Assembly: GCA_038061225.1 (NCBI GenBank)
Contig: JBBTZT010000003.1
Coordinates: forward strand, 113,092 to 177,091
Reading direction: 5' to 3'
Origin: Patescibacteria group bacterium
Lineage (GTDB): Bacteria; Patescibacteriota; Microgenomatia; UBA8517
Length of the DNA stretch: 64,000 bases
The translations under genes were made by a program, and so were the position numbers. Under the pieces are notes generated by a model that saw only the letters and a list, made by a program, of their open reading frames with translations, made no database searches and was not told the origin of the DNA. Shown piece after piece: positions 3,455 through 58,158 of this stretch (its first letter is position 1; each line of letters starts with the position of its first letter).

Positions 3455-4042
3455 ATGATGCGATTTGATCCCGAAAAAAATATTATTAAAACTTCAATCG
3501 AGGGGGTTGTTTTAATTCAAAGACCAATATTAGGAGATGCTAGGGGTTTTCTTCATGAGCCATATAATAAAGAAGAATTAAAAGTAGCAACTGGTATTGA
3601 GTTTAACCCTGTTCAGTGGACTCATGCTTATATTAAACCTGGGGTAATTAAGGCGGTTCATTCTGAAGATTGGAATAAATTAATCTACCCTATTACAGGT
3701 GTCTTGTACGCTCCAATTGTTGATCTTCGCCCTGAATCTTCTACTTTTGGAAAAGTTGAATATATAACTATTGATAATACTAAAGAAGATTCTCCGCGAC
3801 ATGCTTTATTCTTACCTAGTGGAGGTATAGGGAATTCAATTTGTACATTAGGTACTGAAATGATGCACTATTTTTATTTAATTGATAAATACTGGGATGA
3901 TGCCAAAGCCAGTGGTATTGCCTGGAATGATCCTGACCTTGCTATCAAATGGCCAATTAAAGATCCAATACTTTCTGAAAGAGACAAAACAAACAAAACG
4001 CTTCGTCAAGCGTTTCCTGAAAAATTTACATCTAAAAAATGA
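3455..4042 (+). CDS. rmlC: dTDP-4-dehydrorhamnose 3,5-epimerase family (RmlC-like cupin)
   Basis: RGFLHE, FGK, and the C-terminal WNDPDLAIKWP motif conserved in RmlC. Confidence 0.7.
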   Translation: MMRFDPEKNIIKTSIEGVVLIQRPILGDARGFLHEPYNKEELKVATGIEFNPVQWTHAYIKPGVIKAVHSEDWNKLIYPITGVLYAPIVDLRPESSTFGKVEYITIDNTKEDSPRHALFLPSGGIGNSICTLGTEMMHYFYLIDKYWDDAKASGIAWNDPDLAIKWPIKDPILSERDKTNKTLRQAFPEKFTSKK

Positions 4043-4938
4043 TGCATAGAATGAAAAAAGTATTGGTGATTGGTGCAAGTGGTTTGGTTGGATCTAGATT
4101 TGTCGAACTTGCAAAAAACAAAATCGATATCATTCCTGTTGATGAAAAAACTTTAGATATTACAAACAGAGACGCTGTCGAAGTTTTTTTTAAAGAAAAT
4201 AAATTTGATTCAGTTTTAAATTTTGCAGCAATAACTAATGTAGATGGCGCAGAAAAAGAAAGAGATAACAAAAGTGGATTTACTTGGAAATTAAATGTAA
4301 TAGGACCTCAAAATCTTGCTATTGCTTGTAAAGAAAATGGTAGATTTCTAGTCCAAATTTCTACAGATTTTGTTTTTACTGGAAATAAAGAAGATCCAGG
4401 ACCATATAGTGAGGATCATCCTATACCTCAAAATAATAACGGTATTGGTTGGTATGGCTGGACAAAAAATAGAGCAGAAAAGGCTATACAGAACTCAAGA
4501 GTAAGGAATTCGATTGTCAGAATTGCTTACCCATTCTACTCCACAAAGTTTGATTTAAAGTTAGATTTTGCAAAAAATTATCTAAAACTTTTTGATGATG
4601 GAAAATTATTTCCAATTTTTAAAGATCAAACCATAACACCAATTTATGTTGATGATTTGGTAGAACCATTGGTCAAAATTCTAGATGACGAAATAGAGGG
4701 CACATTTCATCTAGTCTCACGCGATGTTACAACTCCATTTGATTTTGTAGAGTATTTATTGAAAAAAAATAGAAATGTCGAAGGGGTAGTCAAAGAAGGA
4801 TCAATGAGTGAGTTTTTGAAGGCAAAAGGCAGAACACCAAGACCAAGATTGGGAGGCTTAAAAACAAAGATAACTCAACAAAAATTGGGGATGAAATTTA
4901 AAACGTGGCGTGAGATGATTGATGAGTTTTCAAAATAA
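4039..4938 (+). CDS. rmlD: dTDP-4-dehydrorhamnose reductase (RmlD-like, NAD(P)-binding)
   Basis: N-terminal GxSGxxG Rossmann motif (VIGASGLVGS). STDFVFTG matches the RmlD STDYVF motif. ATGA coupling to rmlC. Confidence 0.7.
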   Translation: MMHRMKKVLVIGASGLVGSRFVELAKNKIDIIPVDEKTLDITNRDAVEVFFKENKFDSVLNFAAITNVDGAEKERDNKSGFTWKLNVIGPQNLAIACKENGRFLVQISTDFVFTGNKEDPGPYSEDHPIPQNNNGIGWYGWTKNRAEKAIQNSRVRNSIVRIAYPFYSTKFDLKLDFAKNYLKLFDDGKLFPIFKDQTITPIYVDDLVEPLVKILDDEIEGTFHLVSRDVTTPFDFVEYLLKKNRNVEGVVKEGSMSEFLKAKGRTPRPRLGGLKTKITQQKLGMKFKTWREMIDEFSK

Positions 4939-8585: not shown

Positions 8586-9467
8586 ATGAATAATCCGAAA
8601 TTATCAATAATTATACTGAATTATAATACAAAAGAACTTCTCTCTGATTGTCTAAAATCTGTTAAAGAACATATGAATGAAGTTCCAATGGAAGTAATTG
8701 TTTCAGATAATTCATCAACTGACGGAAGCCAGATAATGATCAAAAAGAATTTTCCTTGGGTTAAATTTATTGAAGGAGAGAATGAAGGTTTTTCCAAAGG
8801 CAATAATAGGGCAAAGCCATACGTAAAAGGAAAAATGGTTTTGTTTTTAAATCCCGACACAATTGTTTATAAAGATGTTTTTGCAAAAACTGTAAGATAT
8901 TTAGAAGAACATCCAAAAGTTGGAGCAGTTACTTGTAAGTTGGTTCTGTCTGATGGCAGTATGGATAAAGATATTCGTAGAAAGTTTCCAACTCCAAGGA
9001 TATCTTTTAATAAGTTGGTATTAGGTAAAACTCGTGAGTACTACTATGAATATATTCCAGAAAGCGCAACTCACGAGGTTGAAGCAATTCAAGGAGCCTT
9101 TTTCCTTTCATATAAAAAACTTTTGGATAAAGTCGGTTGGTTTGATGAAAGATACTTCTTCGATGGCGAAGATGTAGATTTATGTTATCAAATTCATAAA
9201 GCTGGGTATTCACTAGTTTATTATCCTGATGTCCACATAACCCATTTGAAAGGTGTTACTAAAGGTAAAGTAAAGAAATGGAGATTTAAAGTAACTGATG
9301 CACAGAGAAAAAAATTAAGACTTGCTGGTGTTGCTTCGATGGAATTATTTTATAGAAAAAATCTTTGGGATAAATATCCATTAATATTTAATTACCTTAT
9401 TGTGTTGGGAATTAATCTGTTTAAAATAGTTAGATACGTGAAAGTAGTTTTACTTTCCTCCTATTAA
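8586..9467 (+). CDS. GT2 family glycosyltransferase
   Basis: LSIIILNYNTKELL...VSDNSSTDGS...EGFSKGNN...LNPDT. Confidence 0.7.
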   Translation: MNNPKLSIIILNYNTKELLSDCLKSVKEHMNEVPMEVIVSDNSSTDGSQIMIKKNFPWVKFIEGENEGFSKGNNRAKPYVKGKMVLFLNPDTIVYKDVFAKTVRYLEEHPKVGAVTCKLVLSDGSMDKDIRRKFPTPRISFNKLVLGKTREYYYEYIPESATHEVEAIQGAFFLSYKKLLDKVGWFDERYFFDGEDVDLCYQIHKAGYSLVYYPDVHITHLKGVTKGKVKKWRFKVTDAQRKKLRLAGVASMELFYRKNLWDKYPLIFNYLIVLGINLFKIVRYVKVVLLSSY

Positions 9468-10098
9468 TTATTTTTCTCCACTTTTCAATTTCTCTGTGGT
9501 TGCCAGTTAATAAAATCTTTGGAACTTTTAAGCTGTTGTAATCTTCTGGGCGAGTATATTGAGGGTATTCACTATTCATATTGGAATGAGATTCTTCCGC
9601 TAGGGACTCCGGTTTAATGACATTTGGTATTAGGCGTGTTACAGCATCTGTAATTACCATCGCTGGTATTTCTCCGCCTGTTAAAACATAATCGCCGATC
9701 GAAATGATCTCATCAACAAAATTTTCATGAACTCTATGATCAATTCCTTCATAGTGACCACAAATTAAAACTAATCTCTTCAATTTGGAATAGTCGTATG
9801 CTTTTTTCTGAGTAAATTTCTCTCCGCCCGCATCAGTCATTATTATTTTTAAACCTTTTGTTTTTGGTTTAGCGTCTATCGATTTTAATGCATTATCAAT
9901 AACATCAACGCGGATTATCATTCCTGCTCCACCACCGTATGGTCTATCATCTACAGTTTTTCTTTCATCAATTCCAAATTGACGCATATCAACAATGTTT
10001 AATTTCAAAAAGTCTTTGTCTTGTGCCCGCCACATAATAGATTCATTCATGGGGCCATCAAACATCTTTGGAAACAAAGTAATAATATCAATTATCAT
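9430..10098 (-). CDS. trmD: tRNA (guanine37-N1)-methyltransferase TrmD
   Basis: Full-length match to the TrmD architecture (MIIDIITLFPKMF..., RPYGGGAGM, GHYEGIDHRV). Confidence 0.9.
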   Translation of the reverse strand: MIIDIITLFPKMFDGPMNESIMWRAQDKDFLKLNIVDMRQFGIDERKTVDDRPYGGGAGMIIRVDVIDNALKSIDAKPKTKGLKIIMTDAGGEKFTQKKAYDYSKLKRLVLICGHYEGIDHRVHENFVDEIISIGDYVLTGGEIPAMVITDAVTRLIPNVIKPESLAEESHSNMNSEYPQYTRPEDYNSLKVPKILLTGNHREIEKWRKIINRRKVKLLSRI

Positions 10099-10120
10099 AT
10101 GGATATTGTATCATTTAAGA

Positions 10121-11245
10121 ATGCAAAAGGTTGTAATTGTAATGCCTGTCTGGAATGAGGCTTCAAATCTCCGTAAAATGGTTAAACAGCTTCTTGATGT
10201 TGAGTTTCCAATTATTAATGCAGAAATGAATTTGTTGGTTGTTGATAATCACTCAACTGACGACACTGTGCAAGTTGTAGAAGAATATTCAAAAAAAGAT
10301 AAACGAGTAAAGTTAATTCAACAAAAAAATAATGGTCTTGGCTGGGCTTATGTTTCTGGATTTCAATATGCAATGAAAGAATTTAATGCAGATGCAGTTT
10401 TGGAGATGGATGGAGATTTTCAACATCCAACAAGATTTATAAAACCAATGGTAGATACATTTTTAGCTGGTGCAGATTACTGTATTGGAAGTAGATATGT
10501 TAAGGGTGGGTCTATTCCTAAAGAATGGCAATTTTCAAGACGAGCAGTTTCATATTTAGGAAATTTATTTATAAGACTTGTTTTACTTAGACCTTCATTA
10601 CATGACTTGACAACTGGCTTTAGACTCTCAAGAGTAAAAGGGGTACTAGATCAAATTGATCTCCCTAATTTAATGGAACTTAATAGATTTGCATATAAAG
10701 TAGATCTATTATATCAATCAATTAAATTATCAAAAAAGACAGTTGAAGTCCCTTTAAAATTTGCGCCTCGAACAATGGAAAAATCTAAATTTAATCCAAA
10801 AGAAATGATTGCAACTTTTAAAGTAGCAATCATTTTAGGTATTAAGGATAAGATGAAAATTATCAAGTTTGGAATAGTTGGTTTTACTGGGTTTGTAGTT
10901 AATTATATTACTCTTCGAATCTTTCGAAATCTAGGATTTACTGAAACTTTATCTTGGGCTTTTTCTACAGAACTTGCAATAATTAATAATTATATATTTA
11001 ATAACATATGGACATTTAAAGAAGATGAAATAAAAGGAATAAAACAAACTATTCTTAAATTTTTCCAATTTAATCTAACATCAGCAGGAGCTCTTTTAAT
11101 ACAGTCAATAGCAGGTCCATTCGGGGTTAAACTCGTTGGTGTTCAATATGATGCATTAGTTTTAGCTTTTGTCGTATTGTTCTTGGTTATGCCTTACAAC
11201 TTCGCCATGTATAATCTCGTTATATGGAGAAAAAAGAAGGTTTGA
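10121..11245 (+). CDS. Polyprenyl-phosphate sugar synthase (Dpm1/ArnC/GtrB-like GT2) fused to a C-terminal GtrA-family 4-TM domain
   Basis: N-terminal VIVMPVWNEASNL...VVDNHSTDDT...MDGDFQHP GT2 core. C-terminal FGIVGFTGFVVNYITLRIF...ELAIINNYIFNNIWTF is the GtrA family. The ATG at 10121 is chosen to avoid trmD overlap. Confidence 0.7.
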   Translation: MQKVVIVMPVWNEASNLRKMVKQLLDVEFPIINAEMNLLVVDNHSTDDTVQVVEEYSKKDKRVKLIQQKNNGLGWAYVSGFQYAMKEFNADAVLEMDGDFQHPTRFIKPMVDTFLAGADYCIGSRYVKGGSIPKEWQFSRRAVSYLGNLFIRLVLLRPSLHDLTTGFRLSRVKGVLDQIDLPNLMELNRFAYKVDLLYQSIKLSKKTVEVPLKFAPRTMEKSKFNPKEMIATFKVAIILGIKDKMKIIKFGIVGFTGFVVNYITLRIFRNLGFTETLSWAFSTELAIINNYIFNNIWTFKEDEIKGIKQTILKFFQFNLTSAGALLIQSIAGPFGVKLVGVQYDALVLAFVVLFLVMPYNFAMYNLVIWRKKKV

Positions 11246-11417
11246 GTCAAAAACCATAATTTTTTCACATTCGTGTTTTGGTTTTGGAGGAAATATTTTT
11301 TCATCACATTTTAAACATACTTGACCTTCAAGCCTTATTCTTTGATGCGTTGCTCTCCAAATTCTTGCAATCTCCATCTGTATATAATTAGTCTTGAATT
11401 CGTATAAAACCCCACGC

Positions 11418-12569
11418 TTAAAGAAATGGTGCCCAGTCAGATATTGGCATGGCGTTTTGGGAAATGAAAGCAAGCGAATATAAATATATAGGAATAATTA
11501 TGACAGCCATAGCTATTTTAAATTCCTTTTTGATCAAAGTTTCTCTAAATCCAAGTAACAAAAATGGAATAAGTGGTAATGAATATCTCATTAAATCTCT
11601 ATGTGTCACAAATAAAAGAGGAGTAAAGAATACAAGTGCAAAATAAAAATAAGTTGTGAGTTTTTCTTGGTATAATTTATATACGCCAAGGATTCCAATT
11701 AAATATATAAAGATAATTTCTTCAAGCCAAAATGTACCTACCCAAGGAGCGGAATAATTAAAGATTTGGAAAGGAGGAAAGAAAAGATGCATGTTATCAC
11801 CTGATTTAAAATAAACCCAAAAATCACCATATGTAATTTTGTAAAATGAAAATACTAAAAACACACCAAAAGGAATTAGTAGCAGTGGCAAATATTTTTT
11901 GTATTCTATATTTTTTAGGTTTTTAAGATAGGGAATAAAAATTTGAAGAAAGTAAGCTACAAACAGCAATATTGCAGGTGATTTAGTCATTTGAGCGAGC
12001 ATTCCCCACATGCCTGCTAGCCAATATTTTTTCTTTCCAAAAAAGAAAGTTGATGCGAGTATCGCGGCAATAAAAAATGGTTCAGCTGAGCCGACTGATC
12101 TAACAATTAACCATCTGGCAGGAAAAATCGCAAAAACAAAAGTTAGCCATAATGAGTCATTATTATTTAAGAATCTTCTTGCGTGTTTGTAGAAGAAAAA
12201 TAAGGCAAGTAAAGAACTTGAAATAGTTACAAAAAGCATCGAATATGGGCTACCAAAAATTGGTGAAAATATCTTTATAAATATTGGAAACATTGGAAAA
12301 TGAGCAGAATAATATTCATTTGTTAATGGGAATTGAAAGTTCTTAGCTATTAATTCAGGATTATATAAAGTTTTTTCAGCAACCATATAAAGTGGACCGT
12401 CAAAATTCGACACGACAGTGGCCATTCCACCATCAGGTAGAGGAATATTCCAAAACTTCTCGAACCTAGCAAAAAACGGCATCCAAATAAAAAAAGTAGG
12501 CACGATTGTTAACAATATTAGTGGGATCAATTTTTTAAATTTATTCACCATAGTTTGATAATACCACAA
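11418..12569 (-). CDS. Polytopic membrane protein, PIG-V/GT76-like mannosyltransferase family (paralog of 49791..50930)
   Basis: About 9-10 TM helices. Shared motifs NFDGxxY, FPLxxxY and FP(A/T)..Y.E with 49791. Confidence 0.4.
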   Translation of the reverse strand: MWYYQTMVNKFKKLIPLILLTIVPTFFIWMPFFARFEKFWNIPLPDGGMATVVSNFDGPLYMVAEKTLYNPELIAKNFQFPLTNEYYSAHFPMFPIFIKIFSPIFGSPYSMLFVTISSSLLALFFFYKHARRFLNNNDSLWLTFVFAIFPARWLIVRSVGSAEPFFIAAILASTFFFGKKKYWLAGMWGMLAQMTKSPAILLFVAYFLQIFIPYLKNLKNIEYKKYLPLLLIPFGVFLVFSFYKITYGDFWVYFKSGDNMHLFFPPFQIFNYSAPWVGTFWLEEIIFIYLIGILGVYKLYQEKLTTYFYFALVFFTPLLFVTHRDLMRYSLPLIPFLLLGFRETLIKKEFKIAMAVIIIPIYLYSLAFISQNAMPISDWAPFL

Positions 12570-12598: not shown

Positions 12599-13297
12599 AT
12601 GGATTCCATTTCTATTTTTTTTCCTACCTATAACGAAGAAGCAAATATAAAAGAGACGATTTTAAAAGCCCTAGAGGTTTTAAAGAAGAATTTTAAAAAC
12701 TTTGAAATAATTGTTGTAAATGATGGGTCTAGGGACAAAACCAGAGAAATTATAGAAAAACTAGGAAAAGAAGATACAAGGATACGAATAATAAATCATA
12801 AGGAGAACAAGGGTTATGGTGCAAGCTTAAAATCAGGTTTTTATAATTGTCGATATGATTGGATTGCATTTACTGATTCTGACGGACAATTTGATTTTGG
12901 TGAGATTAGTGAATTTATTAATAAACAAGGTGAGACAAATGCAGATTTAGTAATTGGATATTATAAAAAAAGACAGGTAAGCAAATTCAAAATAATAACA
13001 TCTAAAATGTGGGAAATATCTGTAGAGATGCTTTTTGGATTACATGTACACGATATTGATTGTGGATTTAAGTTAATTTCAAAAAAAATTATTGATAAAA
13101 TTCCTAAGCTTGAAAGTGAAAGAGGAGCTTTTATTTCAAGTGAGTTTTTGATCAAATCAAAAAAAGCTGGATTTAAAATTGTAGAAATTCCTGTAACCCA
13201 CTATCCAAGATTACAAGGTAAAGGTACTGGAAGAGATTTAAGAGTTATAATTAAAAGTTTTCTAGATCTATTTCGCCTTTGGCGCAAACTTAAATGA
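12599..13297 (+). CDS. GT2 polyprenyl-phosphate glycosyltransferase (Dpm1-like, soluble catalytic domain)
   Basis: ISIFFPTYNEEANI...VVNDGSRDKT...NKGYGASL. Confidence 0.7.
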   Translation: MDSISIFFPTYNEEANIKETILKALEVLKKNFKNFEIIVVNDGSRDKTREIIEKLGKEDTRIRIINHKENKGYGASLKSGFYNCRYDWIAFTDSDGQFDFGEISEFINKQGETNADLVIGYYKKRQVSKFKIITSKMWEISVEMLFGLHVHDIDCGFKLISKKIIDKIPKLESERGAFISSEFLIKSKKAGFKIVEIPVTHYPRLQGKGTGRDLRVIIKSFLDLFRLWRKLK

Positions 13298-14784
13298 AAA
13301 TTGAAAATTATCGACCAGCTATGCTGTGGAAATTAAAAATTACTGATTTTATAAAAGCTAATTGGTTATTAATTACAATATTATTGATTGGAAGTTTTCT
13401 TCGTTTATATAAAATCAGTGCTTATATGACCTTTTTAGGTGATGAAGGAAGAGATGTGTTAGTTGTTAGAAACTTACTAGTACATTTTGATCCCATATTG
13501 ATAGGTCCTGGAACTTCAGTTGGAGATATGTATTTAGGTCCACTTTATTATTATTTTATGGCTCCATTTTTATTTCTTTCTAATTTTTCTCCCGTTGGTC
13601 CTGCAGTAGGAGTTGCCCTTTTAGGCATTGCAACCATATATTTAGTTTATGTAACTGGCCATGATTGGTTTGGTAAAAAAGCTGGCTTAATTGCCTCTTT
13701 GTTTTTTGCCATTTCCCCTACAGTAATTATCTATTCCCGTTCATCTTGGAATCCCAACATAATGCCTTTTTTTGCACTTTTATCTATTTTTTCAATTTGG
13801 AAAGTTTGGAAAGAGAAAAACTATAAATATTTAATATATTCTGCTATTTCATTTGCATTTGTACTTAATTCTCACTATTTAGGTGTTTTATTATTGCCAG
13901 TATTATTTATTTATTGGTTTTTGTCGCGCCCCCCTATACGCTATACGCTATACGCTATTGCACTATTCTTATTTTTAATGTCTCCAATTTTAATTTTTGA
14001 CTTAAGACATGATTTTATGAATTTTAATGCCTTGATTAACTTTTTAAATTCAAACGGAAACAACTTAGGATTTAGTTTAAGTGGGTTTATTACAAAAATT
14101 TATGGAACATTTGAAATTATAATTAATAGTTTATTAATATCTAAAAATTTACAATTTGGAAGATATGTTTCTCTAGGAATAATGCTATTTTTAGTTTTTG
14201 TTTTAACAAAGAAGAAATTCAACATACTACTTCTATGGCTTGGCTTTGGAATTATAGGCTTCGGATTATATAATCTGTCTATATATGATCATTATTTTGG
14301 ATTTTTATTTGCCGCGCCATTTTTATTAATCGGAGGATTCATCGAAAATATTTTTGAAAATTTAAGTAAAGCGGGAAATTATGTTTTATTGTTAGCAATT
14401 TTATTATTGTTTATTGTAAATGTAATCAATAATCCATTAAGAAACAGTCCTAATAATCAAATGAAAAGAGCAGAAAATGTTGCTAATAAAATTATTGCAG
14501 AATCAAAAGATCAATATTTTAATATTGCTGTTGTTGCAGAACAAAATTATGAAGATGGATATCAATATTTTTTAGAAAAAAATAATTCTAAAATAATTGA
14601 AATTGATGCGCAACTTCCTGAGACAGTTGCTGATCAACTTTTTGTAATTTGTGAAAAAGTAAAAGAAAAATGTGACCCCACTCATTCATCTAAGGCAGAA
14701 GTGGCTAATTTTGGTTGGAGTATAATCAGCGAGCAATGGACTGTAGACGGAGTGCAGTTATATAAATTAATACATACAAAATAA
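13294..14784 (+). CDS. GT-C fold membrane glycosyltransferase, family A paralog 1 (ArnT/PMT-like, DE motif)
   Basis: FLGDEGRD first-loop motif and about 12 TMs. Paralogous to 15757, 17253 and 27577. Confidence 0.55.
   Translation: MKIENYRPAMLWKLKITDFIKANWLLITILLIGSFLRLYKISAYMTFLGDEGRDVLVVRNLLVHFDPILIGPGTSVGDMYLGPLYYYFMAPFLFLSNFSPVGPAVGVALLGIATIYLVYVTGHDWFGKKAGLIASLFFAISPTVIIYSRSSWNPNIMPFFALLSIFSIWKVWKEKNYKYLIYSAISFAFVLNSHYLGVLLLPVLFIYWFLSRPPIRYTLYAIALFLFLMSPILIFDLRHDFMNFNALINFLNSNGNNLGFSLSGFITKIYGTFEIIINSLLISKNLQFGRYVSLGIMLFLVFVLTKKKFNILLLWLGFGIIGFGLYNLSIYDHYFGFLFAAPFLLIGGFIENIFENLSKAGNYVLLLAILLLFIVNVINNPLRNSPNNQMKRAENVANKIIAESKDQYFNIAVVAEQNYEDGYQYFLEKNNSKIIEIDAQLPETVADQLFVICEKVKEKCDPTHSSKAEVANFGWSIISEQWTVDGVQLYKLIHTK
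13934..13958. repeat. 7-bp tandem repeat (CTATACG)x3.5 inside the CDS 13294..14784
   Basis: Direct reading of the sequence. Confidence 0.9.
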
Positions 14785-17256: not shown

Positions 17257-18746
17257 ACAATAAAGTAAAAATAATACTTTTTTCTATTCTGATATTATCG
17301 TTTTTATTACGCCTATATAACTTTAGATCTTATTACGTTTTTTCTCATGATCAAGATCTTGCTTCATGGATTATTAAAGACATTTTAGTAAATGGCCACT
17401 TAAGACTTATTGGTCAAGAAACATCTAGTCAGGGAGTTTTTATTGGGGCGCTTTTTTATTATCTCCAAATACCTTTTTATCTTTTTGGTAGAATGAGCCC
17501 GTTATCTGCTGTCTTTTTACCTGTAATTTTAGGAGTATTTGCAACATATAGTTTATTTTTTGTTTTTAGTAAAATTGCAAATATTAAATTAGGATTGATT
17601 GCTGCATTTATTTATGCAGTATCTGCTTTAATTGTTTTCGTTGATCGTGAGGTAGCTCCAACAATGCCTGTAATGCTATGGACAATGTGGTATTTATATA
17701 GTCTTTTCTTGATTTACAAAAGCAAGTATTTAAAGGGTTTTGTTTTAAATATCTTCTTAATTGGATTGATTTGGCATTTAAATCCTTCCTTAATTTTACT
17801 AACACCTTTAGTCTTAGTTGCGTTTTTGTTTTCTAAAAAGAAAATTGATAAAGTAACCATTTTCAATGTAAAAGCGATACTTATTGGATTTTTGGTTTTG
17901 TTTTTAACTAGTTTGCCTCTAATTTTCTTTGAGTTTAGACACGATTTTAGTCAGACAAAAGCAGTTATTTTATCGTTAACTACCAAGAAAGATTTTATTC
18001 AAGGCACTTCAACAGGTTTTGCAAAATTTGATAGAGTTATGCAACTTGTTAACAAAAATACCATTAGCATTTTTTCTAAACATCATTTCATTCACCCAAG
18101 TATAGTATTTATTTTGTTAATTAGTTTACTTTATTATTTTATTAAAATTAAAAAAATTAATTTATTTTTGTCTACCACATTTATTTTGTGGTTGGGACTC
18201 TATATTGTTTTTTTTAGTCTAAATTCTAAAAACCCTTCAGAATATTATTTTAATGGCATGAATATTATCTGGATTTTTATTGCTTCCTTAGGTCTTTTTG
18301 AACTTAAGAAAACAAAGGTAGGATTATTACTTTTTTATCTATTAACAATCTTGTTTTTTCTAGTAAATATAAATTATATATTTAAATATAACCCTGACAA
18401 AAAAGGATATATTGAAAAAGTTGATTTAGTAAAATATATAAATGCAGACAGGATAAAACGTGATTATCCTTGTATCTCGATATCTTATATAACAAATCCG
18501 GGGTACGATTTAGGTTATAGATATTTATTTTATTTAGAAAATATGCATGTAAATAGACCTATATCAAACTCTCCAGTTTATACCATAGTTTATCCACACA
18601 ATTTGGTTAATAGTATTGATAAAGCATTTGGATCTTTAGGGCTTATTTATCCTGATTATGACCGTTATAATAAAGAAGAAGTGGAAAAAAGTTATATTGG
18701 TGCAAATTCTAATTTAACTGATCCAATGTTTGGATACACTGAATAA
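17253..18746 (+). CDS. GT-C fold membrane glycosyltransferase, family A paralog 3
   Basis: SHDQDLASW motif; GxxxYY and FEFRHDF motifs shared with family A. Confidence 0.55.
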   Translation: MNNKVKIILFSILILSFLLRLYNFRSYYVFSHDQDLASWIIKDILVNGHLRLIGQETSSQGVFIGALFYYLQIPFYLFGRMSPLSAVFLPVILGVFATYSLFFVFSKIANIKLGLIAAFIYAVSALIVFVDREVAPTMPVMLWTMWYLYSLFLIYKSKYLKGFVLNIFLIGLIWHLNPSLILLTPLVLVAFLFSKKKIDKVTIFNVKAILIGFLVLFLTSLPLIFFEFRHDFSQTKAVILSLTTKKDFIQGTSTGFAKFDRVMQLVNKNTISIFSKHHFIHPSIVFILLISLLYYFIKIKKINLFLSTTFILWLGLYIVFFSLNSKNPSEYYFNGMNIIWIFIASLGLFELKKTKVGLLLFYLLTILFFLVNINYIFKYNPDKKGYIEKVDLVKYINADRIKRDYPCISISYITNPGYDLGYRYLFYLENMHVNRPISNSPVYTIVYPHNLVNSIDKAFGSLGLIYPDYDRYNKEEVEKSYIGANSNLTDPMFGYTE

Positions 18747-19494
18747 TATGAATATATCTATAATCATACCATCTTTTAATGAAGAAAATAATATAAGAAC
18801 GGGATCTCTTTCAGGGATAGTTGATTATTTAAATCAACAAAAATATAGATGGGAAATAATTGTAGTAGACGATGGGTCTAGTGATAAAACTGCAGAGCTA
18901 GCTGAAAAATTTGCTAAAAACCACAAAAATGTTGTTGTTCTGAGAGAACCTCATAGAGGAAAAGGTGGAACTGTTATTGCGGGAATGCTAAAAGCTAATG
19001 GAGATGTTGTTATTTTTGACGACATGGATCAAGCAACACCGATTGATCAATTAGAAAAAATATTACCAAAATTTTCAAATGGCTACGATATAGTTATTGG
19101 TTCAAGAGTGGGTAGAGAAGGTGCACCTTTAATCAGGAAAACAATGGCCTTAGGATTTTCTATCTTACGCAATTTAGTATTGCGACTTCCATATAAAGAT
19201 ACACAGTGTGGATTTAAAGCTTTTAAAAAGAAAGCATCTAATGAAATATTTAAACGTTTACAGATTTTTAATCAACAACAAGCACAATCTGGAGCTTCAG
19301 TTTCAGCAGGATTTGATCTTGAAATATTATATGTTGCCAGAAAATTAAAATTAAAGGTGGCGGAAGTTCCTGTCGTTTGGCATCACAAAGAAGGAACTAA
19401 AGTTAATCCAATTAAAGATAGTTGGGAAGGTCTAAGAGATCTAATGAAAGTAAGACTAAATGCTATTCAAGGAAAATATAATTTAAGGAGATGA
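18730..19494 (+). CDS. GT2 polyprenyl-phosphate glycosyltransferase (Dpm1/GtrB-like)
   Basis: ISIIIPSFNEENNI...VVDDGSSDKT...FDDMDQATP...GFKAF. Confidence 0.7.
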   Translation: MDTLNNMNISIIIPSFNEENNIRTGSLSGIVDYLNQQKYRWEIIVVDDGSSDKTAELAEKFAKNHKNVVVLREPHRGKGGTVIAGMLKANGDVVIFDDMDQATPIDQLEKILPKFSNGYDIVIGSRVGREGAPLIRKTMALGFSILRNLVLRLPYKDTQCGFKAFKKKASNEIFKRLQIFNQQQAQSGASVSAGFDLEILYVARKLKLKVAEVPVVWHHKEGTKVNPIKDSWEGLRDLMKVRLNAIQGKYNLRR

Positions 19495-20321
19495 AAACTA
19501 AATCTTCAAAAATAGTTTTGTTCAAAGATCAAAAAATTAGACGTGATTGGAATAAAAAAGAACAAAAATGGTATTTTTCTGTTATTGATATCGTAGGAGT
19601 TTTAAGCAAAAGTACCAGCACTCAGGCATATTGGCGCAAGTTGAAGGAAAGGTTAAAAGCTGAAGGTAGCGAAACCGTGACAAAATGTCACGGTTTGAAA
19701 ATGAAAGCGATTGACGGAAAAATGAGGTTAACAGACGTGGCAGATACTGAAACAATGCTTAGATTAATCCAATCAATACCATCACCTAACGCTGAGCCTT
19801 TTAAATTATGGCTTGCGAGAGTTGGTTATGAAAGAATTGAAGAAACTGAAGATCCAGAAAAAGGAATTCAACGAGCATTGTCTACATATCTTAAAAAAGG
19901 ATATTCCAAATCATGGGTTGATCTAAGGCTTAAAAGTATAGAAATTAGAAAAGATTTAACTAATGAGTGGGATGAAAGAGGTGTTAGTAACTCAAAAGAA
20001 TATGCAATATTAACTGACGATATTACCTTTGCATGGGCGGGACTTCGAACAAAAGATTACAAAGATTATAAAAATTTAAAAAAAGAAAATTTGCGGGACA
20101 ATATGACTAATTTGGAGTTAGTTTTAAATATGTTAGCAGAGACAGCAACTACAGAAATTTCAAAAACTAAAAAACCTGATACTTTTTATAAAAATAGAAT
20201 TGTTGCCAAAGAAGGAGGGGATATTGCGGGAAGAGCAAGAAAACAAATTGAAGTCAAAAGCGGTAGAAAAGTGGTCAGTAAATATCGTTTTGGCGAAAAA
20301 AGAGATAAACTATTAAAATGA
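19491..20321 (+). CDS. Bro-N domain protein (phage antirepressor / DinD-like)
   Basis: N-terminal Bro-N signature (F....iR.....WYFSVIDIVGVL...ESGLY-type, LIQSIPSPNAEPFKLWLARV). ATGA coupling on both sides. Confidence 0.55.
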   Translation: MKTKSSKIVLFKDQKIRRDWNKKEQKWYFSVIDIVGVLSKSTSTQAYWRKLKERLKAEGSETVTKCHGLKMKAIDGKMRLTDVADTETMLRLIQSIPSPNAEPFKLWLARVGYERIEETEDPEKGIQRALSTYLKKGYSKSWVDLRLKSIEIRKDLTNEWDERGVSNSKEYAILTDDITFAWAGLRTKDYKDYKNLKKENLRDNMTNLELVLNMLAETATTEISKTKKPDTFYKNRIVAKEGGDIAGRARKQIEVKSGRKVVSKYRFGEKRDKLLK

Positions 20322-21854: not shown

Positions 21855-23330
21855 GTGGAAGAAGAAATTGGAATAGAAACAATAGGAATAGAGACCATAA
21901 AGCAAAGATCTGTTCGTGGAGTTGTTATTTTAACTGGTAGAACTTTTTTACTTCAAATTATTGGTCTTGTTGCACAATTTTTTCTATTTGCCTATCTTGG
22001 TGGTTATGAATTTGGAGTTTTTGCAATTATTTCTGCAATCATTAATTTTCTAGTTTATTTTTCTGATATTGGACTAGCTGCAGCTTTAATTCAGAAAAAA
22101 GAAACTCCAACTGATACAGATTTAAAAACAACTTTCTTTGTTCAACAAATATTAATTTTCACAATAATTGGAATTGTTTTTTTACTAACCCCTTTCTTTG
22201 TCCAAAAATATTCACTAACCTATGATGGTCAAATACTTTTATACGCATTATCTTTATCCCTTGTCTTTTCATCTCTTAAAAGTATTCCTTCAGTACTTTT
22301 GGAAAGAAAATTGGAGTTTATTAAATTAGTTTTTCCCCAAATTTTAGAACAAATTGTTTATAACGTAGTTTTGGTATTTTTTGCCATGAAGGGTTTTGGT
22401 TTAAAAAGTTTTACTATTGCAGTAATTTTAAGGGGAATTATAGGACTTGTTGCAATTTATGCACTTCAACCATGGAAACCTGGAATTGCCTTTTCCTTAA
22501 ATACTCTAAAAGGATTATTTAAATTTGGTATTCCATATCAAATTAATACATTTTTAGCAACGCTAAAAGATGATGGAATGACGATTGTGTTAGGAGGAAT
22601 AATCGGTCCAGTTGGAGTTGGAATATTATCATTTGCTCAGAAGTTAGCGAGGCTTCCGTTAACATTTTTTATGGATACGGTAACACGTGTGACTTTCCCT
22701 GCATTTTCAAGAATGCAAGATCACAAGAATGATTTAGAAAGAAGTGTTACAAGATCAATATTTTTCATTTGTCTTTTTGTTTTTCCAAGTTTAATGGGAA
22801 TAATTATACTTTCTCCATTGTTAGTTCGTGTTGTTCCAAGATATGAACAATGGATACCAGCACTTATCCCAATTATATTTATCTCAATAAATTTTGCTTT
22901 TGCCAGTGCTACAACACAACTTACTAATCTTTTAAATGCGATTGGCAAAATTAAAATAACATTTTATTTAATGATAATGTGGACTGTTTTATCTTGGACT
23001 TTTATTCCATTTTTAGCTCTAAAATTTGGAGTATTGGGAGCATCAATTGGTTATGCTTTAGTTGGGTCATCATCTCTAATTGCGATATATATAGCTAAGA
23101 AGTATGTAAACTTTGGAGTTATCGATTCAATGATCAAGCCATTGATTGGATCAGTTGTTATGGGGGTAGTCTTGATTTTTGTACGTAAATTTTTGGATAT
23201 TAGTGTGAATTCAATGCTTATTCTAAGTTTAGTTGGTGTATTAGTTTATGGTTCGTCAATGATTTCTATGATGGGTGTTTCTTTAATAGAAGATGCTAAA
23301 AAAAGTTACAAAACAATTTTCTCTCGTTAG
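21855..23330 (+). CDS. Wzx/MOP-superfamily polysaccharide flippase (GTG start inferred)
   Basis: 14 predicted TMs. The N-terminal RGVVILTGRTFLLQIIG pattern is typical of polysaccharide biosynthesis/flippase proteins. Confidence 0.6.
   Translation: MEEEIGIETIGIETIKQRSVRGVVILTGRTFLLQIIGLVAQFFLFAYLGGYEFGVFAIISAIINFLVYFSDIGLAAALIQKKETPTDTDLKTTFFVQQILIFTIIGIVFLLTPFFVQKYSLTYDGQILLYALSLSLVFSSLKSIPSVLLERKLEFIKLVFPQILEQIVYNVVLVFFAMKGFGLKSFTIAVILRGIIGLVAIYALQPWKPGIAFSLNTLKGLFKFGIPYQINTFLATLKDDGMTIVLGGIIGPVGVGILSFAQKLARLPLTFFMDTVTRVTFPAFSRMQDHKNDLERSVTRSIFFICLFVFPSLMGIIILSPLLVRVVPRYEQWIPALIPIIFISINFAFASATTQLTNLLNAIGKIKITFYLMIMWTVLSWTFIPFLALKFGVLGASIGYALVGSSSLIAIYIAKKYVNFGVIDSMIKPLIGSVVMGVVLIFVRKFLDISVNSMLILSLVGVLVYGSSMISMMGVSLIEDAKKSYKTIFSR
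21869..21898. repeat. 15-bp tandem repeat GGAATAGARACMATA x2 at the 5' end of the flippase ORF
   Basis: 12/15 identity between units; encodes IGIETIGIETI. Confidence 0.8.
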
Positions 23331-25014
23331 CCTAATAATAATTGGAACTATCACATGGTCTTTGACTATGGTAAGAAGTGGACTGCTTTATAAATTTGGT
23401 TATGGATTTTGGGGACCAAATGGCCATGATGGTATTTGGCACATAGCTCTTTCTAATAGTCTTTCTAAAGGAACTTTAGAAAATCCAATTTTTTCTGGTT
23501 CTTTGTTGCAGAATTATCACCTTGGTTTTGATCTGCTCTTAGCTTTGTTAAATAAATTAACAACAATTCCTATTAGTATTTTGTATTTCCAGATTCTGCC
23601 TCCTATTTTCGCTTTAATGATTGGTTTACTAGTATATTTATTTGTTTTAAATTGGAGAGGATCTAAAAATGAAGCACTATGGTCTACAGCCTTTGTTTAT
23701 TTTAGTTCATCGTTTGGATTTATTATTACATTTTTAAGAGATAGAGTTATCACAGGTGAGTCAATGTTTTGGTCACAACAATCTATCTCTACTTTAGTTA
23801 ATCCTCCTTTCGCACTATCTCTAATATTTATTTTATCTGCTCTTATCTCTTTACAAAAAAAGAATTTATTTTTTAGTATTATATTTTTTGGAATATTAAT
23901 TCAAATTAAAGCTTATGCCGCTATTCTTGTTCTTGCTGGTTTGTTTATCTCTGGTCTGTATTCATACATCTTCCATCATAAATCTTACATCTTAAAAGTC
24001 TTTCTTGCTTCACTTTTTTTAAATTTAATTTTGTTTGTGACAACAAGGAGTGACGGCTTGTCAACGTTTGTTTGGCAACCTATGTGGTTTTTAGAAACTT
24101 TAATGTCCTATTCAGATAGATTTGGTTGGGAAAGGCTTTATTCTGCAATGACAACTTATAAAATGGGGCATATTTGGTTTAAAGAAATTTTGGCATATTC
24201 ATTAGCTTTTGCAATTTTTATACTGGGTAATATGGGAGTGCGTATTATTGGATTTTATTATTTTTTAAAAGTACTTAAAAATAAAATCAAAATTGATGAA
24301 ATTTTAGTATTTATTACTACTATTTTGTTAATGGCGATTATAATTCCAATGTTTTTAGTTCAAAAAGGTACGCCTTGGAATACTATTCAATTTTTCTATT
24401 ATTATTTATTCTTTTCCTCAATTTTTGCAGGTATATCTATGGATTTACTTACAAACAATAAAAAACGAATAGTTAGAGTTGGTTTAATGACTTTATTTTC
24501 TATGTTTACAATATTTGGAGCATGGTCTACCTTGCAACATTATTTACCTAAAATGCCACAATCTATGGTCTCAAATGAAGAATATGCCGCCTTAGATTTT
24601 TTGACTAAACAAACAGATGGAATAATTTTTACTTATCCATTTGATGAGAGTAAAGCCATTTTAGCTACTAAAAACCCTCCTCGTCCACTTTATTTCTATG
24701 AATCAACATCATATGTATCAGCTTTTACTCATAAACCAGTATTTCTTGAAGATCAGGTAAACTTAAACATCATGGGCTATAGCTGGGAGAATCGCAGAGA
24801 ACAGACGTTGTGGTTTATCTTAAACCTTGATAAAGAGGCGGGTAGAGAGTTTTTGGGTCGCAATAATATAAAATATTTGTATTTAGTTAAAGAAGCTTCA
24901 CCTCTTTTTGGAGAGCTACTTAGGTTAGGTTCGGCTGAATTAGATCTAAAGAAGATTTTTGAAAATAAAAAAAGTATAATATACCAATATGGCAAAGATT
25001 TCGGTAGTAATTAA
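23293..25014 (+). CDS. Polytopic membrane protein with C-terminal extracytoplasmic domain, family E paralog 1 (uncharacterised; possibly a polymerase/ligase-like GT-C)
   Basis: Motifs GHDGIWHIAL and ENPIFSGSLLQNYH shared with 38446..40281 (-). Confidence 0.5.
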   Translation: MLKKVTKQFSLVSLIIIGTITWSLTMVRSGLLYKFGYGFWGPNGHDGIWHIALSNSLSKGTLENPIFSGSLLQNYHLGFDLLLALLNKLTTIPISILYFQILPPIFALMIGLLVYLFVLNWRGSKNEALWSTAFVYFSSSFGFIITFLRDRVITGESMFWSQQSISTLVNPPFALSLIFILSALISLQKKNLFFSIIFFGILIQIKAYAAILVLAGLFISGLYSYIFHHKSYILKVFLASLFLNLILFVTTRSDGLSTFVWQPMWFLETLMSYSDRFGWERLYSAMTTYKMGHIWFKEILAYSLAFAIFILGNMGVRIIGFYYFLKVLKNKIKIDEILVFITTILLMAIIIPMFLVQKGTPWNTIQFFYYYLFFSSIFAGISMDLLTNNKKRIVRVGLMTLFSMFTIFGAWSTLQHYLPKMPQSMVSNEEYAALDFLTKQTDGIIFTYPFDESKAILATKNPPRPLYFYESTSYVSAFTHKPVFLEDQVNLNIMGYSWENRREQTLWFILNLDKEAGREFLGRNNIKYLYLVKEASPLFGELLRLGSAELDLKKIFENKKSIIYQYGKDFGSN

Positions 25015-26598: not shown

Positions 26599-27599
26599 AT
26601 ACTTTAGGTGGGGGAGAACGTTACAGTTTAACCTTTGCTAAAGTATTAGCGGAAATTGGGTTTGACGTTGATATTGAATGGAAAGATAAATCAATAAAAG
26701 AAAAACTCTCGAAAAGATTTGGATTAAAATTGCCAAATAATATTAATGTTGTTGATAATATCAATCGCGGGGAAGGTTATGATATTTGTTTTTGGGTAAC
26801 AGATGGTAGCATTCCCACTTTGAGATCGAGAAGAAATTATCTTCACTTCCAAGTTCCATTTCATGATGTCAATGGAACATCGTTGCTAAATAAAATGAAG
26901 TTATTTAGAATAGAAAAAATAATTTGTAATTCTTACTTTACCAAAACAATAGTTGACAAAGAGTATGGAGTAAATTCTATTGTTCTTTATCCACCCGTTG
27001 CTACGGATTTGTATAAAGCAAAAAGAAAAATTGAGCAGATTTGTTATGTCAGTCGTTTTTCTGAATTAACACAAAATAAAGGGCATGACATTTTAATTAA
27101 ACAATTTAAATTATTAGTTAAAGACAAAAAGTTTAAAGAATGGAAATTAGTTTTAGCAGGCGGGACTGAAATAGGTTCAACTGATTATCTTAAAAGACTA
27201 AAGAAAATGAGCAGTGGATATAATATAGAATTTGTAGAAAGTCCTACGGTAGATATTTTAAAAAATATATTTGGCAAATCAAAAATATTTTGGTCTGGTT
27301 CAGGGTTTAGTGAGAATGAAGTTAAAAATCCTGAAAGAGTGGAACATTTTGGAATTACACTAGTTGAGTCGATGTCCGCAGGATGTGTTCCTGTCGTATA
27401 TAAGGCAGGTGGATATAAAGAAATTATTGATAATAGTAAAAATGGATTTTTATGGAATGATAAAAAAGATCTTTTAGAATTAACTAAAAAAACAGTAAAA
27501 GAAAAAGGATTATTAAAAACAATTTCTAAAAATGCGATTGACTCGTCAAAAAAATATAGCTATGAAACATTTAAAAATGAAATCAGAAAAATTATATAG
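26565..27599 (+). CDS. GT4 family glycosyltransferase
   Basis: E-x7-E motif FGITLVESMSAGCVPVV. Confidence 0.65.
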   Translation: MGKAAIYNPYLDTLGGGERYSLTFAKVLAEIGFDVDIEWKDKSIKEKLSKRFGLKLPNNINVVDNINRGEGYDICFWVTDGSIPTLRSRRNYLHFQVPFHDVNGTSLLNKMKLFRIEKIICNSYFTKTIVDKEYGVNSIVLYPPVATDLYKAKRKIEQICYVSRFSELTQNKGHDILIKQFKLLVKDKKFKEWKLVLAGGTEIGSTDYLKRLKKMSSGYNIEFVESPTVDILKNIFGKSKIFWSGSGFSENEVKNPERVEHFGITLVESMSAGCVPVVYKAGGYKEIIDNSKNGFLWNDKKDLLELTKKTVKEKGLLKTISKNAIDSSKKYSYETFKNEIRKII

Positions 27600-37909: not shown

Positions 37910-38495
37910 TTTATTTACAATTTTTACAATTCTGTTTTTATTATTTGTTGTTCCAGGGTTATTGGCAAGTTTTATTAAAATGATTCCTGCAAATGATCAG
38001 CCGGGATATGGTAGTAAAGGTAGTGTTTCAATTTACGGCCAACGTGATTTTACACAGTATTTTGTGTCAAAAAATAAAAATTTAGTTGCAATTGGTACAA
38101 CTATTAAAAATCCAAATTTAAAAAACAAGAAAGATATTATTTTTAATTTGTATGATGATAGTGATAATTTAATTAGAACGACAACTTTAAATGGTTTTAA
38201 TATTGGGGATGGGGACTTTGTAAAAATAGTGTTTGAAAATGTAGTAGATTCAGAAAATAAAAAATATTATTTTATTCTTTCTTCACCTAGTGCAGGAGAT
38301 GAAGAAACAATTGGAGTATTTTTAACAGAACCAACTGATGAAATTCTAGAGTTTATATATGATGACGAAACACATCTAGGAGGTGCCCCAATTGTGACAT
38401 ATCACAAACCAGATAGTAGACTAGAAGTCATAAAAGTAGTTTATTCTAATTTATTTTCCAAACTTCTATTTCTTGATTTTCAAAGAATAAAGTAA
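37896..38495 (+). CDS. N-terminally membrane-anchored extracytoplasmic protein, unknown function
   Basis: Single N-terminal TM (IFTILFLLFVVPGLLASFI) followed by a soluble domain of about 170 aa. Confidence 0.4.
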   Translation: MNKFNLFTIFTILFLLFVVPGLLASFIKMIPANDQPGYGSKGSVSIYGQRDFTQYFVSKNKNLVAIGTTIKNPNLKNKKDIIFNLYDDSDNLIRTTTLNGFNIGDGDFVKIVFENVVDSENKKYYFILSSPSAGDEETIGVFLTEPTDEILEFIYDDETHLGGAPIVTYHKPDSRLEVIKVVYSNLFSKLLFLDFQRIK

Positions 38496-57124: not shown

Positions 57125-57132
57125 TCAAATTT

Positions 57133-58116: not shown

Positions 58117-58158
58117 TACTAGAATTATTGAACTTAAACTGTTATTATTTCTCCATAA

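Follow-up and report, generated by a model that had tools for sequence, protein, structure and literature searches.

How polyprenyl- and dolichyl-phosphate monosaccharides cross membranes is a long-standing question, and a Dol-P-Man flippase is not known from any organism. For a self-flipping enzyme, the leading candidate is a lipid-sugar synthase with a built-in GtrA-like domain, of which, to our knowledge, the sole studied example comes from a hyperthermophilic archaeon. That protein, PfDPMS, the dolichyl-phosphate mannose synthase of Pyrococcus furiosus, is the founder of type III DPMS and is represented by the PDB entries 5MLZ, 5MM0, 5MM1, and 9EP0 (PMC5526996, PMC12992685). In the 9EP0 crystal, a flipped Dol-P-Man lies in the polar pocket of the TM domain, from which coupling of synthesis to flipping has already been proposed, and type III DPMS have been reported from archaea only, all of them hyperthermophiles (Gandini et al. 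2026, PMC12992685). Topologically, TMD1 and TMD2 of PfDPMS have been likened to DPM2 and DPM3 (PMC5526996).

In the Gtr and Arn systems, as a sequence-only reading of the locus described below had noted, the synthase and its proposed translocase are separate polypeptides (PMC11127046, PMC12992685). The O-antigen glucosylation systems of Shigella and Salmonella phages consist of GtrB and GtrA (with GtrX); GtrB has two TM helices of its own, forms tetramers, and takes UDP-glucose as donor, and structures of Synechocystis GtrB are available (5EKP, 9NY*). Canonical GtrA reportedly lacks the polar-pocket motifs of type III DPMS (PMC12992685), and direct proof of polyprenyl-phosphate-monosaccharide translocation is absent even for founding members of the GtrA family (PMC11127046, PMC7389260). 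In the aminoarabinose modification of lipid A, ArnC, ArnE/ArnF, and ArnT are likewise distinct proteins, and ArnC, which has two TM helices, uses UDP-Ara4FN. Gram-positive teichoic-acid glycosylation follows the same division of labor, with a CsbB/GtlA-type GT2, GtcA, and a YfhO-type GT-C as separate polypeptides. GtcA is a PF04138 protein in which the TMH4 asparagine N132, together with R95, is needed for function (PMC7389260). The same reaction class also takes in two groups that have no PF04138 domain, actinobacterial Ppm1 and eukaryotic DPM1 (type I, with one TM helix; type II, DPM1-DPM2-DPM3).

The locus described here differs from these divided systems in that both domains are encoded by one gene. 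Within a 64 kb window, meaning the whole stretch of DNA that was analyzed, a single uninterrupted ORF on the plus strand (10121-11245) forms a complete CDS of 374 aa, with a TGA stop codon at 11243-11245. Judged by its sequence, the product is a polyprenyl-phosphate glycosyltransferase of bacterial origin that shares its overall design with the archaeal type III enzyme PfDPMS. The reading favored here, with a probability of about 0.6, is that it is a type-III-DPMS-like lipid-sugar synthase whose TM domain would do more than anchor it, serving as a functional module for lipid handling. The longest ORF at the locus runs from 9995 to 11245 (plus strand). However, the start codon is best placed at the 10121 ATG, because the longer 5′ ORF would overlap the divergent trmD gene (9430-10098, minus strand), because homologues start at the same MxKVVIVMP, and because an identical 374-aa protein, P0001 (annotated as “Patescibacteria group bacterium”), begins at this codon. 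A promoter and terminator scan of 9800-11600 gave nothing above chance.

The pairing of a Dpm1/GtrB-class GT2 with a GtrA-family four-helix domain in one ORF, which the sequence-only reading had put forward, is borne out by Pfam, where both domains lie above their gathering cut-offs, and by the helices of an AF2 model. PF00535 (Glycos_transf_2) matches aa 6-173 with 97.8 bits against a cut-off of 23.3 (E 8.8e-28), placing the GT2 catalytic domain (GT-A fold) at 10136-10639 (plus strand). PF04138 (“GtrA/DPMS, transmembrane domain”) matches aa 249-369 with 57.8 bits against 26.1 (E 1.5e-15), and the match spans profile positions 1-117 of 117. In the AF2 model, the C-terminal domain has four long helices (TMH1, aa 245-270; TMH2, aa 275-298; TMH3, aa 307-339; TMH4, aa 341-368), which occupy 10853-11224 (plus strand) and after which comes a basic tail, WRKKKV. 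The charge distribution points to an N-in/C-in topology. The domain junction falls at about nt 10850, as had been supposed, where an interface helix (aa 226-243) gives way to TMH1, which starts at aa 245 (nt 10853). Stand-alone GtrA-type proteins, such as Shigella phage GtrA and Listeria GtcA, have about 120-150 aa and stand beside a separate GtrB-type synthase, whereas here the domain is fused. When the TM domain alone is compared with the PDB, PfDPMS is the sole match (E 1.3e-9). The two proteins have the same covalent GT2 plus four-helix GtrA-like architecture, but their identity is only 32%, and the AF2 model superposes on PfDPMS with a global TM-score of only about 0.6, which leaves its TMD1/TMD2 geometry provisional.

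The roles of the catalytic, lipid-phosphate, and A-loop residues considered here are taken from work on PfDPMS (PMC5526996). By alignment, the metal/diphosphate motif D97-G-D99-F-Q101-H102-P103-T104 (10409-10432, plus strand) corresponds to 89-DADLQHPP-96 of PfDPMS. Its sequence, DGDFQHPT, departs from the strict type III motif 89-DADxQHPP-96 (where x is L, F, or Y) through A90G and P96T, yet it retains the functional residues of the motif (D, D, Q, H, and P95), and across 38 homologues there is no variation at D97, D99, F100, Q101, H102, or P103. Position 90 is Ala in 25 of these 38 close homologues and position 96 is Pro in 27, and the family consensus is DADFQHPP. The putative lipid-phosphate residues S124-R125-Y126, R140, and S144 (10490-10552, plus strand) correspond to the SRY (with R117), R131, and S135 of PfDPMS and are invariant in the 38 homologues; phosphate-binding Arg/Ser residues are also common to DPM1 and Ppm1. 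K193 (10697-10699, plus strand) aligns with Lys178, which contacts both sugar and phosphate in PfDPMS. This lysine is family-invariant, but the local motif is KVD instead of 178-KIL-180. According to the alignment and the AF2 model, an acceptor loop with R217 and K223 (PfDPMS Arg202 and Lys208) leads into the interface helix, which is amphipathic (together 10769-10849, plus strand). The residues that are invariant in the 38 homologues include D97, D99, Q101, H102, R125, R140, S144, K193, R217, K223, E13, and G72-L73. Most catalytic-only relatives of the DPM1/Ppm1 type have DAD-x-SH-D and Gln at position 178, whereas the fusion protein and PfDPMS have QHP and Lys178. The full PfDPMS-like set of 12 positions is found in 6 of 91 fused sequences, the 374-aa protein being one of the six.

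In the proposed mechanism, the cytoplasmic GT2 domain would use D97, D99, and Q101 to bind a nucleotide sugar together with a divalent metal. The phosphate of the lipid carrier, which in this bacterium is presumably undecaprenyl phosphate in place of the dolichyl phosphate of PfDPMS, would be held by R125, R140, and S144 between two amphipathic interface helices. Inverting transfer of one hexose would then give polyprenyl-P-β-hexose. This synthase step, from nucleotide sugar to polyprenyl-P-β-hexose, is strongly supported by homology and very probably takes place.

In the TM domain, the polar-pocket residues Asn248 and Asn277 of PfDPMS align with N261 in TMH1 (10901-10903, plus strand) and N290 in TMH2 (10988-10990, plus strand), the latter being invariant (38/38). 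In TMH4, the segment M357-P358-Y359-N360 (11189-11200, plus strand) aligns so that N360 corresponds to PfDPMS Arg341, a type III position that is Arg in Thermococcales and Asn elsewhere. M357 replaces the gating Phe338, a position at which type III enzymes tolerate Tyr and at which the close family has Leu or Met. P358 and N360 are invariant in the close family. The TMH4 correspondence comes from an alignment with 90 diverse representatives, 78 of which have Asn at the N360 position, and it is trusted because it recovers the Arg-to-Asn pattern of PMC12992685. It supersedes an alignment of 38 close homologues with PfDPMS, without the last 10 residues, in which Phe338 fell on F350 and Arg341 on L353. 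The invariant N360 can be likened to N132 of GtcA at the level of the helix, both being TMH4 asparagines. Overall, the invariant intramembrane polar residues are N261, N290, N294, N295, Q316, N318, and N360. N261 appears in this list, yet it is N in 36 of the 38 close homologues. An internal TMD1/TMD2 sequence repeat has been reported for PfDPMS; in the fusion protein, local alignment detected no such repeat (score 20.5 vs a shuffle mean of 25.6).

The convergent neighbor downstream of the fusion gene encodes a minimal GT-C-fold membrane glycosyltransferase (11418-12569, minus strand; likely start 12551, 377 aa), and this GT-C lies downstream on the opposite strand in all 59 of the related loci examined. 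A Pfam scan of the 377-aa protein from the window returned no match, and its homologue P0374 passes PMT_2 (29.2 bits vs 26.1). Its AF2 model has a pLDDT of 88 and a pTM of 0.90, and in Foldseek all significant matches (E ≤ 0.001), as well as the next 30 or so ranked, are GT-C enzymes. This GT-C is the candidate consumer of the lipid-linked sugar. Some relatives have a 285-aa ORF, with no Pfam match and no TM segment, between the fusion gene and the GT-C; it is absent from the window. Two further genes are syntenic. The first encodes a catalytic-only GT2 of the polyprenyl-phosphate glycosyltransferase class (12599-13297, plus strand; 232 aa; PF00535, E 1.7e-35), which is present in 56 of the 59 loci, matches the catalytic HMM of the fusion protein at positions 1-221 (E 2e-16), and is without the DPMS-specific H94, R117/SRY, and K178. 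The second encodes a PMT_2-family GT-C glycosyltransferase (13294-14784, plus strand; PF13231, E 8.7e-12), present in 45 of the 59. The abundance of GT-C enzymes noted from the sequence alone is real, with about 14 GT-C-type genes in the 64 kb window, including members of the PMT_2, PMT, and GT87 families. It is unlikely, however, that the fusion protein supplies the donor for all of them, as had been proposed, because three further GT2 paralogues of this class, all catalytic-only, are encoded in the window and the conserved partner is one particular 377-aa GT-C.

If the favored reading is correct, the C-terminal four-helix GtrA-like domain would support the isoprenoid chain, and a polar pocket of N261, N290, and N360 would help the sugar-phosphate head group to cross to the outer leaflet. 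There, the lipid-sugar would be used by the adjacent 377-aa GT-C and possibly by other GT-Cs of the locus. That the TM domain supports the chain, aids flipping, and feeds the GT-C is a tentative proposal, with a chance somewhat short of even. Obligatory coupling of synthesis and flipping, which the sequence-only reading suggested, would be a reasonable hypothesis by analogy with PfDPMS, and it is not a new one.

It is also possible, if not the likelier case, that the same enzyme uses its GtrA-like domain as an anchor, an isoprenoid-binding platform, and/or a docking scaffold for the GT-C, while another protein, such as a Wzx/MATE-like transporter or a scramblase, carries out translocation. Several observations on related proteins are consistent with this. 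TM-deleted and chimeric variants of PfDPMS keep wild-type activity, and TMH4 of PfDPMS provides a platform on which the dolichyl chain rests (PMC5526996; PMC12992685). The synthase activity of PfDPMS survives TM-domain deletion, N277M, or F338Q, and no assay of its flipping has been reported (PMC12992685). For Rv3789, a GtrA-family protein, the proposed flippase role has met with a challenge (PMC12992685), and a hub or scaffold role has been proposed for PsPA7_6247 (PMC12992685; bioRxiv 10.1101/2020.04.19.049825). In the window, two Polysacc_synt_3 (Wzx-like) transporters (21855-23330 and 51742-52998) could in principle flip lipid-linked sugars, and the strict 59/59 adjacency with one GT-C fits a physical complex. 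However, conservation of the TM domain is no lower than that of the catalytic domain (76.5% vs 69.6%), a level that fits poorly with a simple anchor, and this conservation and the invariant intramembrane polar residues exceed what an anchor needs. A protein-protein interface could be an alternative cause of the TM-domain conservation. [quoted passage not shown]

Nearly every contact that PfDPMS makes with mannose and guanine is retained, and among the GT-Cs of the locus are families that take polyprenyl-P-mannose as substrate (PMT/PMT_2 and GT87), so that the sugar transferred by this synthase is most likely mannose from GDP-mannose, at about even odds. The PfDPMS sugar contacts D89, H94, R117, and K178 and the base-stacking G68-L69 are retained as D97, H102, R125, K193, and G72-L73, and the Q93/P95/K178 combination is common to the fusion protein, PfDPMS, and few other fused sequences. 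GT87, PMT, and PIG-M-like GT-C families, all present in the window, are mannose users in characterized systems. Specificity for GDP is nevertheless not assured, because the residue that reads guanine N1/N2 in PfDPMS, Asp39 (PMC5526996), has Asn43 in its place. The product may instead be polyprenyl-P-glucose, -galactose, or -GlcNAc, or carry a modified hexose, made from a UDP- or dTDP-sugar, so that “DPMS-like” would describe the scaffold only; this is conceivable, though less likely than not. PfDPMS itself has residual GDP-Glc activity (PMC5526996). The sugar-nucleotide genes in the window (RmlC, RmlD, other epimerases/dehydratases, and a DegT aminotransferase) include those of dTDP-rhamnose and aminosugar types, and no GDP-mannose synthesis gene is found there. 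In addition, the cut-offs of all NCBIfam equivalogs lie far above the scores of the fusion protein, and the best models are for hexose and other transferases: PgfS, 82.8 vs 500; AglJ, 56.6 vs 325; ArnC, 41.3 vs 529; PpgS, 35.5 vs 370; and the Halobacterial Dol-P hexose transferase, 26.8 vs 375. NCBIfam assigns it no equivalog.

That the fusion is an artefact, in which adjacent gtrB-like and gtrA-like genes were joined by a sequencing or assembly error near nt 10850, has no point in its favor and is ruled out for practical purposes: the frame is continuous, with no stop and no frameshift between the GT2 and GtrA-like domains, 15 contigs, up to 330 kb long, have the identical 374-aa sequence on record, every one of the 120 closest homologues, from different sources, is of the same length (366-390 aa, 68-100% identity) and carries both domains, sequence conservation around the junction (84% identity, with K223-F224 and the interface helix counted in) ranks with the highest in the protein, and PfDPMS crystals show the same covalent architecture.

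The fusion is also less unusual than the sequence-only reading took it to be. Its architecture is identical to that of the solved PfDPMS, Pfam names PF04138 after DPMS, and the two-domain form is the rule among relatives, since the 120 closest homologues all have it and so do 74 or more of the 150 top-ranking cluster representatives (clustered at 50% identity). Many distant relatives are catalytic-only proteins of about 240-260 aa. The fused design is already known from archaeal PfDPMS, and the 374-aa protein adds a bacterial case, from an uncultured, ultra-small member of the Woesebacteria/Patescibacteria. Conservation of the gene extends to 459 or more species genomes. All of the best 80 loci lie in bacterial MAGs, and wherever their label is informative it reads Woesebacteria, Microgenomates, or Patescibacteria, which differs from the distribution reported for type III enzymes in hyperthermophilic archaea. 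A literature search for the fusion in bacteria or CPR found no specific prior description. What is mildly new is a bacterial enzyme of type-III-DPMS-like design, set against the published restriction to hyperthermophilic archaea.

This distribution corrects the impression that the design is confined to archaea and hyperthermophiles. The same architecture, with most functional residues kept, is standard in a large group of uncultured bacteria, and a bacterial family in close linkage with one particular GT-C partner enlarges the range of proteins with which self-flipping can be probed. It is rather unlikely, on present evidence, that mesophilic, ultra-small CPR bacteria (Woesebacteria/Microgenomates) possess a true type III DPMS equivalent that both makes and flips polyprenyl-P-mannose for the 377-aa GT-C. 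If they do, the published view of the type III design as a hyperthermophile adaptation would be overturned, the design would seem to have either an ancient origin or one shared laterally by archaea and CPR bacteria, and a bacterial family with invariant intramembrane Asn residues would be at hand for studying self-flipping by lipid-sugar synthases. The proteins are currently annotated only as “glycosyltransferase” or “hypothetical protein”, and the names proposed are polyprenyl-phosphate hexosyltransferase (type-III-DPMS-like) for the fusion protein and GT-C glycosyltransferase for its neighbor. Several of the best 80 loci come from records whose sample names refer to groundwater, aquifers, or peat.

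The longest open reading frame spans 9995–11245 on the forward strand, and its ATG at 10121 yields a 374-residue protein that ends at a TGA stop (11243–11245). This ATG is taken as the start because a longer 5′ extension would run into the divergent trmD gene (tRNA (m1G37) methyltransferase, 9430–10098 (−), PF01746 E 5e-55), and because the homologues, among them the identical P0001 in the database, begin at the same methionine. The interval 10121–11245 of the sequence-only reading is exact. Only 22 bp (10099–10120) separate the start codons of the two divergent genes, and a scan of 9800–11600 gave no promoter- or terminator-like signal above chance.

In Pfam, Glycos_transf_2 occupies residues 6–173 (97.8 bits, cut-off 23.3) and PF04138, “GtrA/DPMS, transmembrane domain”, residues 249–369, over all 117 profile positions (57.8 bits, cut-off 26.1). 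The sequence-only reading had proposed a Dpm1/GtrB-like GT2 fused to a GtrA flippase-type domain near nucleotide 10850; both domains are present, the junction lies there, and the frame crosses it without a stop or frameshift. An identical protein is recorded from 15 contigs, both domains occur in all 120 nearest homologues (366–390 residues), and the junction region, at 84% identity, ranks with the most conserved stretches of the sequence, which rules out a sequencing or assembly artefact. The observation of a fusion is correct and well above chance. Topology, suggested as a further check, is compatible as well: charged residues are absent from the TMH1-2 and TMH3-4 loops and present in the TMH2-3 loop, and the tail (WRKKKV) is basic, a distribution that fits a predicted N-in/C-in arrangement.

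Among all PDB sequences, Pyrococcus furiosus dolichyl-phosphate mannose synthase (PfDPMS, 5mlz_A) aligns end to end with the protein (23–364 with 2–354, E 6e-38, 32% identity). The next matches, GtrB and ArnC, cover the N-terminal half only, and the transmembrane (TM) domain searched alone has PfDPMS as its sole PDB match (E 1.3e-9). The PfDPMS structure, a GT2 domain covalently joined to four TM helices in two pairs, defines the type-III DPMS, and activity remains intact after deletion of residues 230–352 (Gandini et al. 2017, PMC5526996). Its TM domain was termed GtrA-like by Gandini et al. 2026 (PMC12992685), who showed again that TM mutants retain synthase activity and proposed that PfDPMS moonlights as a translocator of its own product. 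In their crystal 9EP0, a Dol-P-Man molecule is seen upside-down; its head group occupies a polar pocket of Asn248, Asn277 and Arg341, with Phe338 as the gate. The idea of a synthase fused to a flippase is the hypothesis already published for PfDPMS, the closest solved relative, and the Pfam family name (GtrA/DPMS) already mirrors the fusion. Since the architecture is solved, named in Pfam and widespread, the fusion itself is already known and not novel in kind. The interpretation given in the sequence-only reading has partial support.

For comparison of residues, native PfDPMS 1–342 was rebuilt from the phmmer alignment, and its numbering agrees with every residue that the papers name. The metal/diphosphate motif 89-DADLQHPP-96 corresponds to D97-G-D99-F-Q101-H102-P103-T104, and the close-family consensus is exactly DADFQHPP. 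Further pairs are E12 with E13, G68-L69 with G72-L73, SRY (R117) with S124-R125-Y126, R131 and S135 with R140 and S144, K178 with K193 and, in the A-loop, R202 and K208 with R217 and K223. The guanine-reading Asp39, in contrast, is replaced by Asn43. In the TM polar pocket, Asn248 and Asn277 match N261 and N290. The pairing of TMH4 comes from an alignment in which 90 diverse representatives serve as a bridge; there the invariant N360 falls at position 341, an Asn in all non-Thermococcales type-III enzymes (PMC12992685), and Met357 at gate position 338, where PfDPMS has Phe. All twelve checked positions are present in only 6 of 91 fused sequences, this one included. Measured against the strict 2026 definition of type III, the protein has two substitutions in DADxQHPP and lacks Phe338, its K193 aligns with K178 of the KIL site within a local K-V-D motif, and its host is non-archaeal, unlike the reported hosts. 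From these differences it would best be called type-III-DPMS-like.

Homology shows a predicted GT2 polyprenyl-phosphate glycosyltransferase with all of the metal/diphosphate and lipid-phosphate binding residues. Given the bacterial host, the lipid carrier would be undecaprenyl phosphate. The transferred sugar may be mannose, as the sugar contacts are kept and GT-C families of the mannose type are close by; the change of Asp39 to Asn and the lack of any visible GDP-mannose synthesis gene in the window speak against it. The TM domain would handle the lipid and help to flip its head group. A specific function is favored by its conservation, at least equal to that of the catalytic domain (76.5% versus 69.6%), and by its invariant intramembrane Asn and Gln residues. 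The differing gate residue argues against the putative flipping, as does the interpretation of GtrA proteins in the literature as scaffolds too. Strict adjacency to one GT-C enzyme is compatible with either a scaffold or substrate channelling.

With phmmer, 1.84 billion cluster representatives yielded 29,720 relatives at E ≤ 1e-3, of which 235 reach E ≤ 1e-30. Two-domain proteins make up at least 74 of the 150 best representatives, and about 50 are catalytic-only. Relatives occur at 459 or more loci in one-genome-per-species contigs. The best 80 of these are bacterial MAGs, whose informative labels are Woesebacteria, Microgenomates or Patescibacteria, some with groundwater, aquifer or peat sample names. 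This distribution contrasts with the statement that type-III DPMS occur only in hyperthermophilic archaea (PMC12992685). The modest new content is a very large CPR-bacterial family with almost all of the functional motifs of the archaeal type-III enzymes; its genes are paired with one for a minimal GT-C enzyme, and it extends a design thought restricted to archaea and hyperthermophiles. Many MAG records titled “uncultured Gammaproteobacteria bacterium” (loci L001, L007, L009, L012 and others) hold the Woesebacteria-type cluster at 55–82% identity, some on chromosomes of about 0.8 Mb; these labels look like placeholders or errors.

In 59 related loci with full flanks, a convergent 383/377-residue membrane protein always lies downstream, a 232-residue GT2 is found in 56, divergent trmD upstream in 49, a PMT_2 GT-C in 45 and a DHH protein in 35. 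The multi-pass neighbor (11418–12569 (−), 377/383 residues) is called hypothetical by the sources that give it a name, and has no Pfam match itself. A homologue 68% identical to it passes the PMT_2 cut-off, and one source names a homologue “Gpi18-like mannosyltransferase”. With its AF2 model (pLDDT 88, pTM 0.90), Foldseek matches at E ≤ 0.001 are only GT-C enzymes (STT3/AglB oligosaccharyltransferases), and the next 30 or so are also GT-C (PglB, ALG9/ALG12, ArnT, PimE, GPI-MT-I). Its first loop carries an invariant N49-x-D51-G-P-L-Y motif. The neighbor is confidently predicted to be a GT-C-fold glycosyltransferase. In 24 of the 59 loci, a soluble protein of about 285 residues, with no Pfam match or TM segment, lies between synthase and GT-C gene (e.g., L005, 7139–7996 (+)); it is absent from the window.

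The many GT-C enzymes of the sequence-only reading are borne out by about 14 GT-C-type genes in the window (PMT_2/PMT, PTPS_related, GT87 and the 377-residue neighbor), alongside many GT2 and GT4 genes and sugar-nucleotide modifying enzymes. The GT-C genes are unusually dense in 13294–46287 and 61152–63302 (nine PMT_2/PMT, two PTPS_related, two GT87-like), partly in tandem (e.g., 40218–46287), with GT2 and GT4 genes interleaved and two Wzx-like transporters (21855–23330, 51742–52998) among them. Three catalytic-only GT2 proteins of 232–254 residues (12599–13297, 18730–19494 and 52995–53741, all (+)) align with the catalytic domain of the fused protein over nearly all of that domain, and lack a TM domain and the DPMS-specific residues H94, K178 and R117/SRY. 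Possibly these are further lipid-sugar synthases that depend on a separate membrane partner. A search of the window with the family HMM detected no second GtrA-like domain. Six large ORFs of 379–616 residues inside the glycosylation locus (23293–25014, 27532–29124, 33875–35494, 38446–40281 (−), 49791–50930 and 53731–55581) lack a Pfam match at E < 0.001; judged by their size and position, some of them could be additional unrecognized membrane glycosyltransferases or polymerases. The dTDP-rhamnose genes RmlC and RmlD, an epimerase/dehydratase and a DegT-type aminotransferase lie in 3455–4938 and 57073–59238. A Bro-N domain protein, of a kind usually associated with phages and mobile elements, sits mid-cluster (19491–20321 (+)) and occurs in 1 of 59 related loci. 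Among the sugar-modifying genes lies a 120-residue “23S rRNA intervening sequence protein” (55620–55982 (+), PF05635 E 9e-38), which is also bAvd-like.
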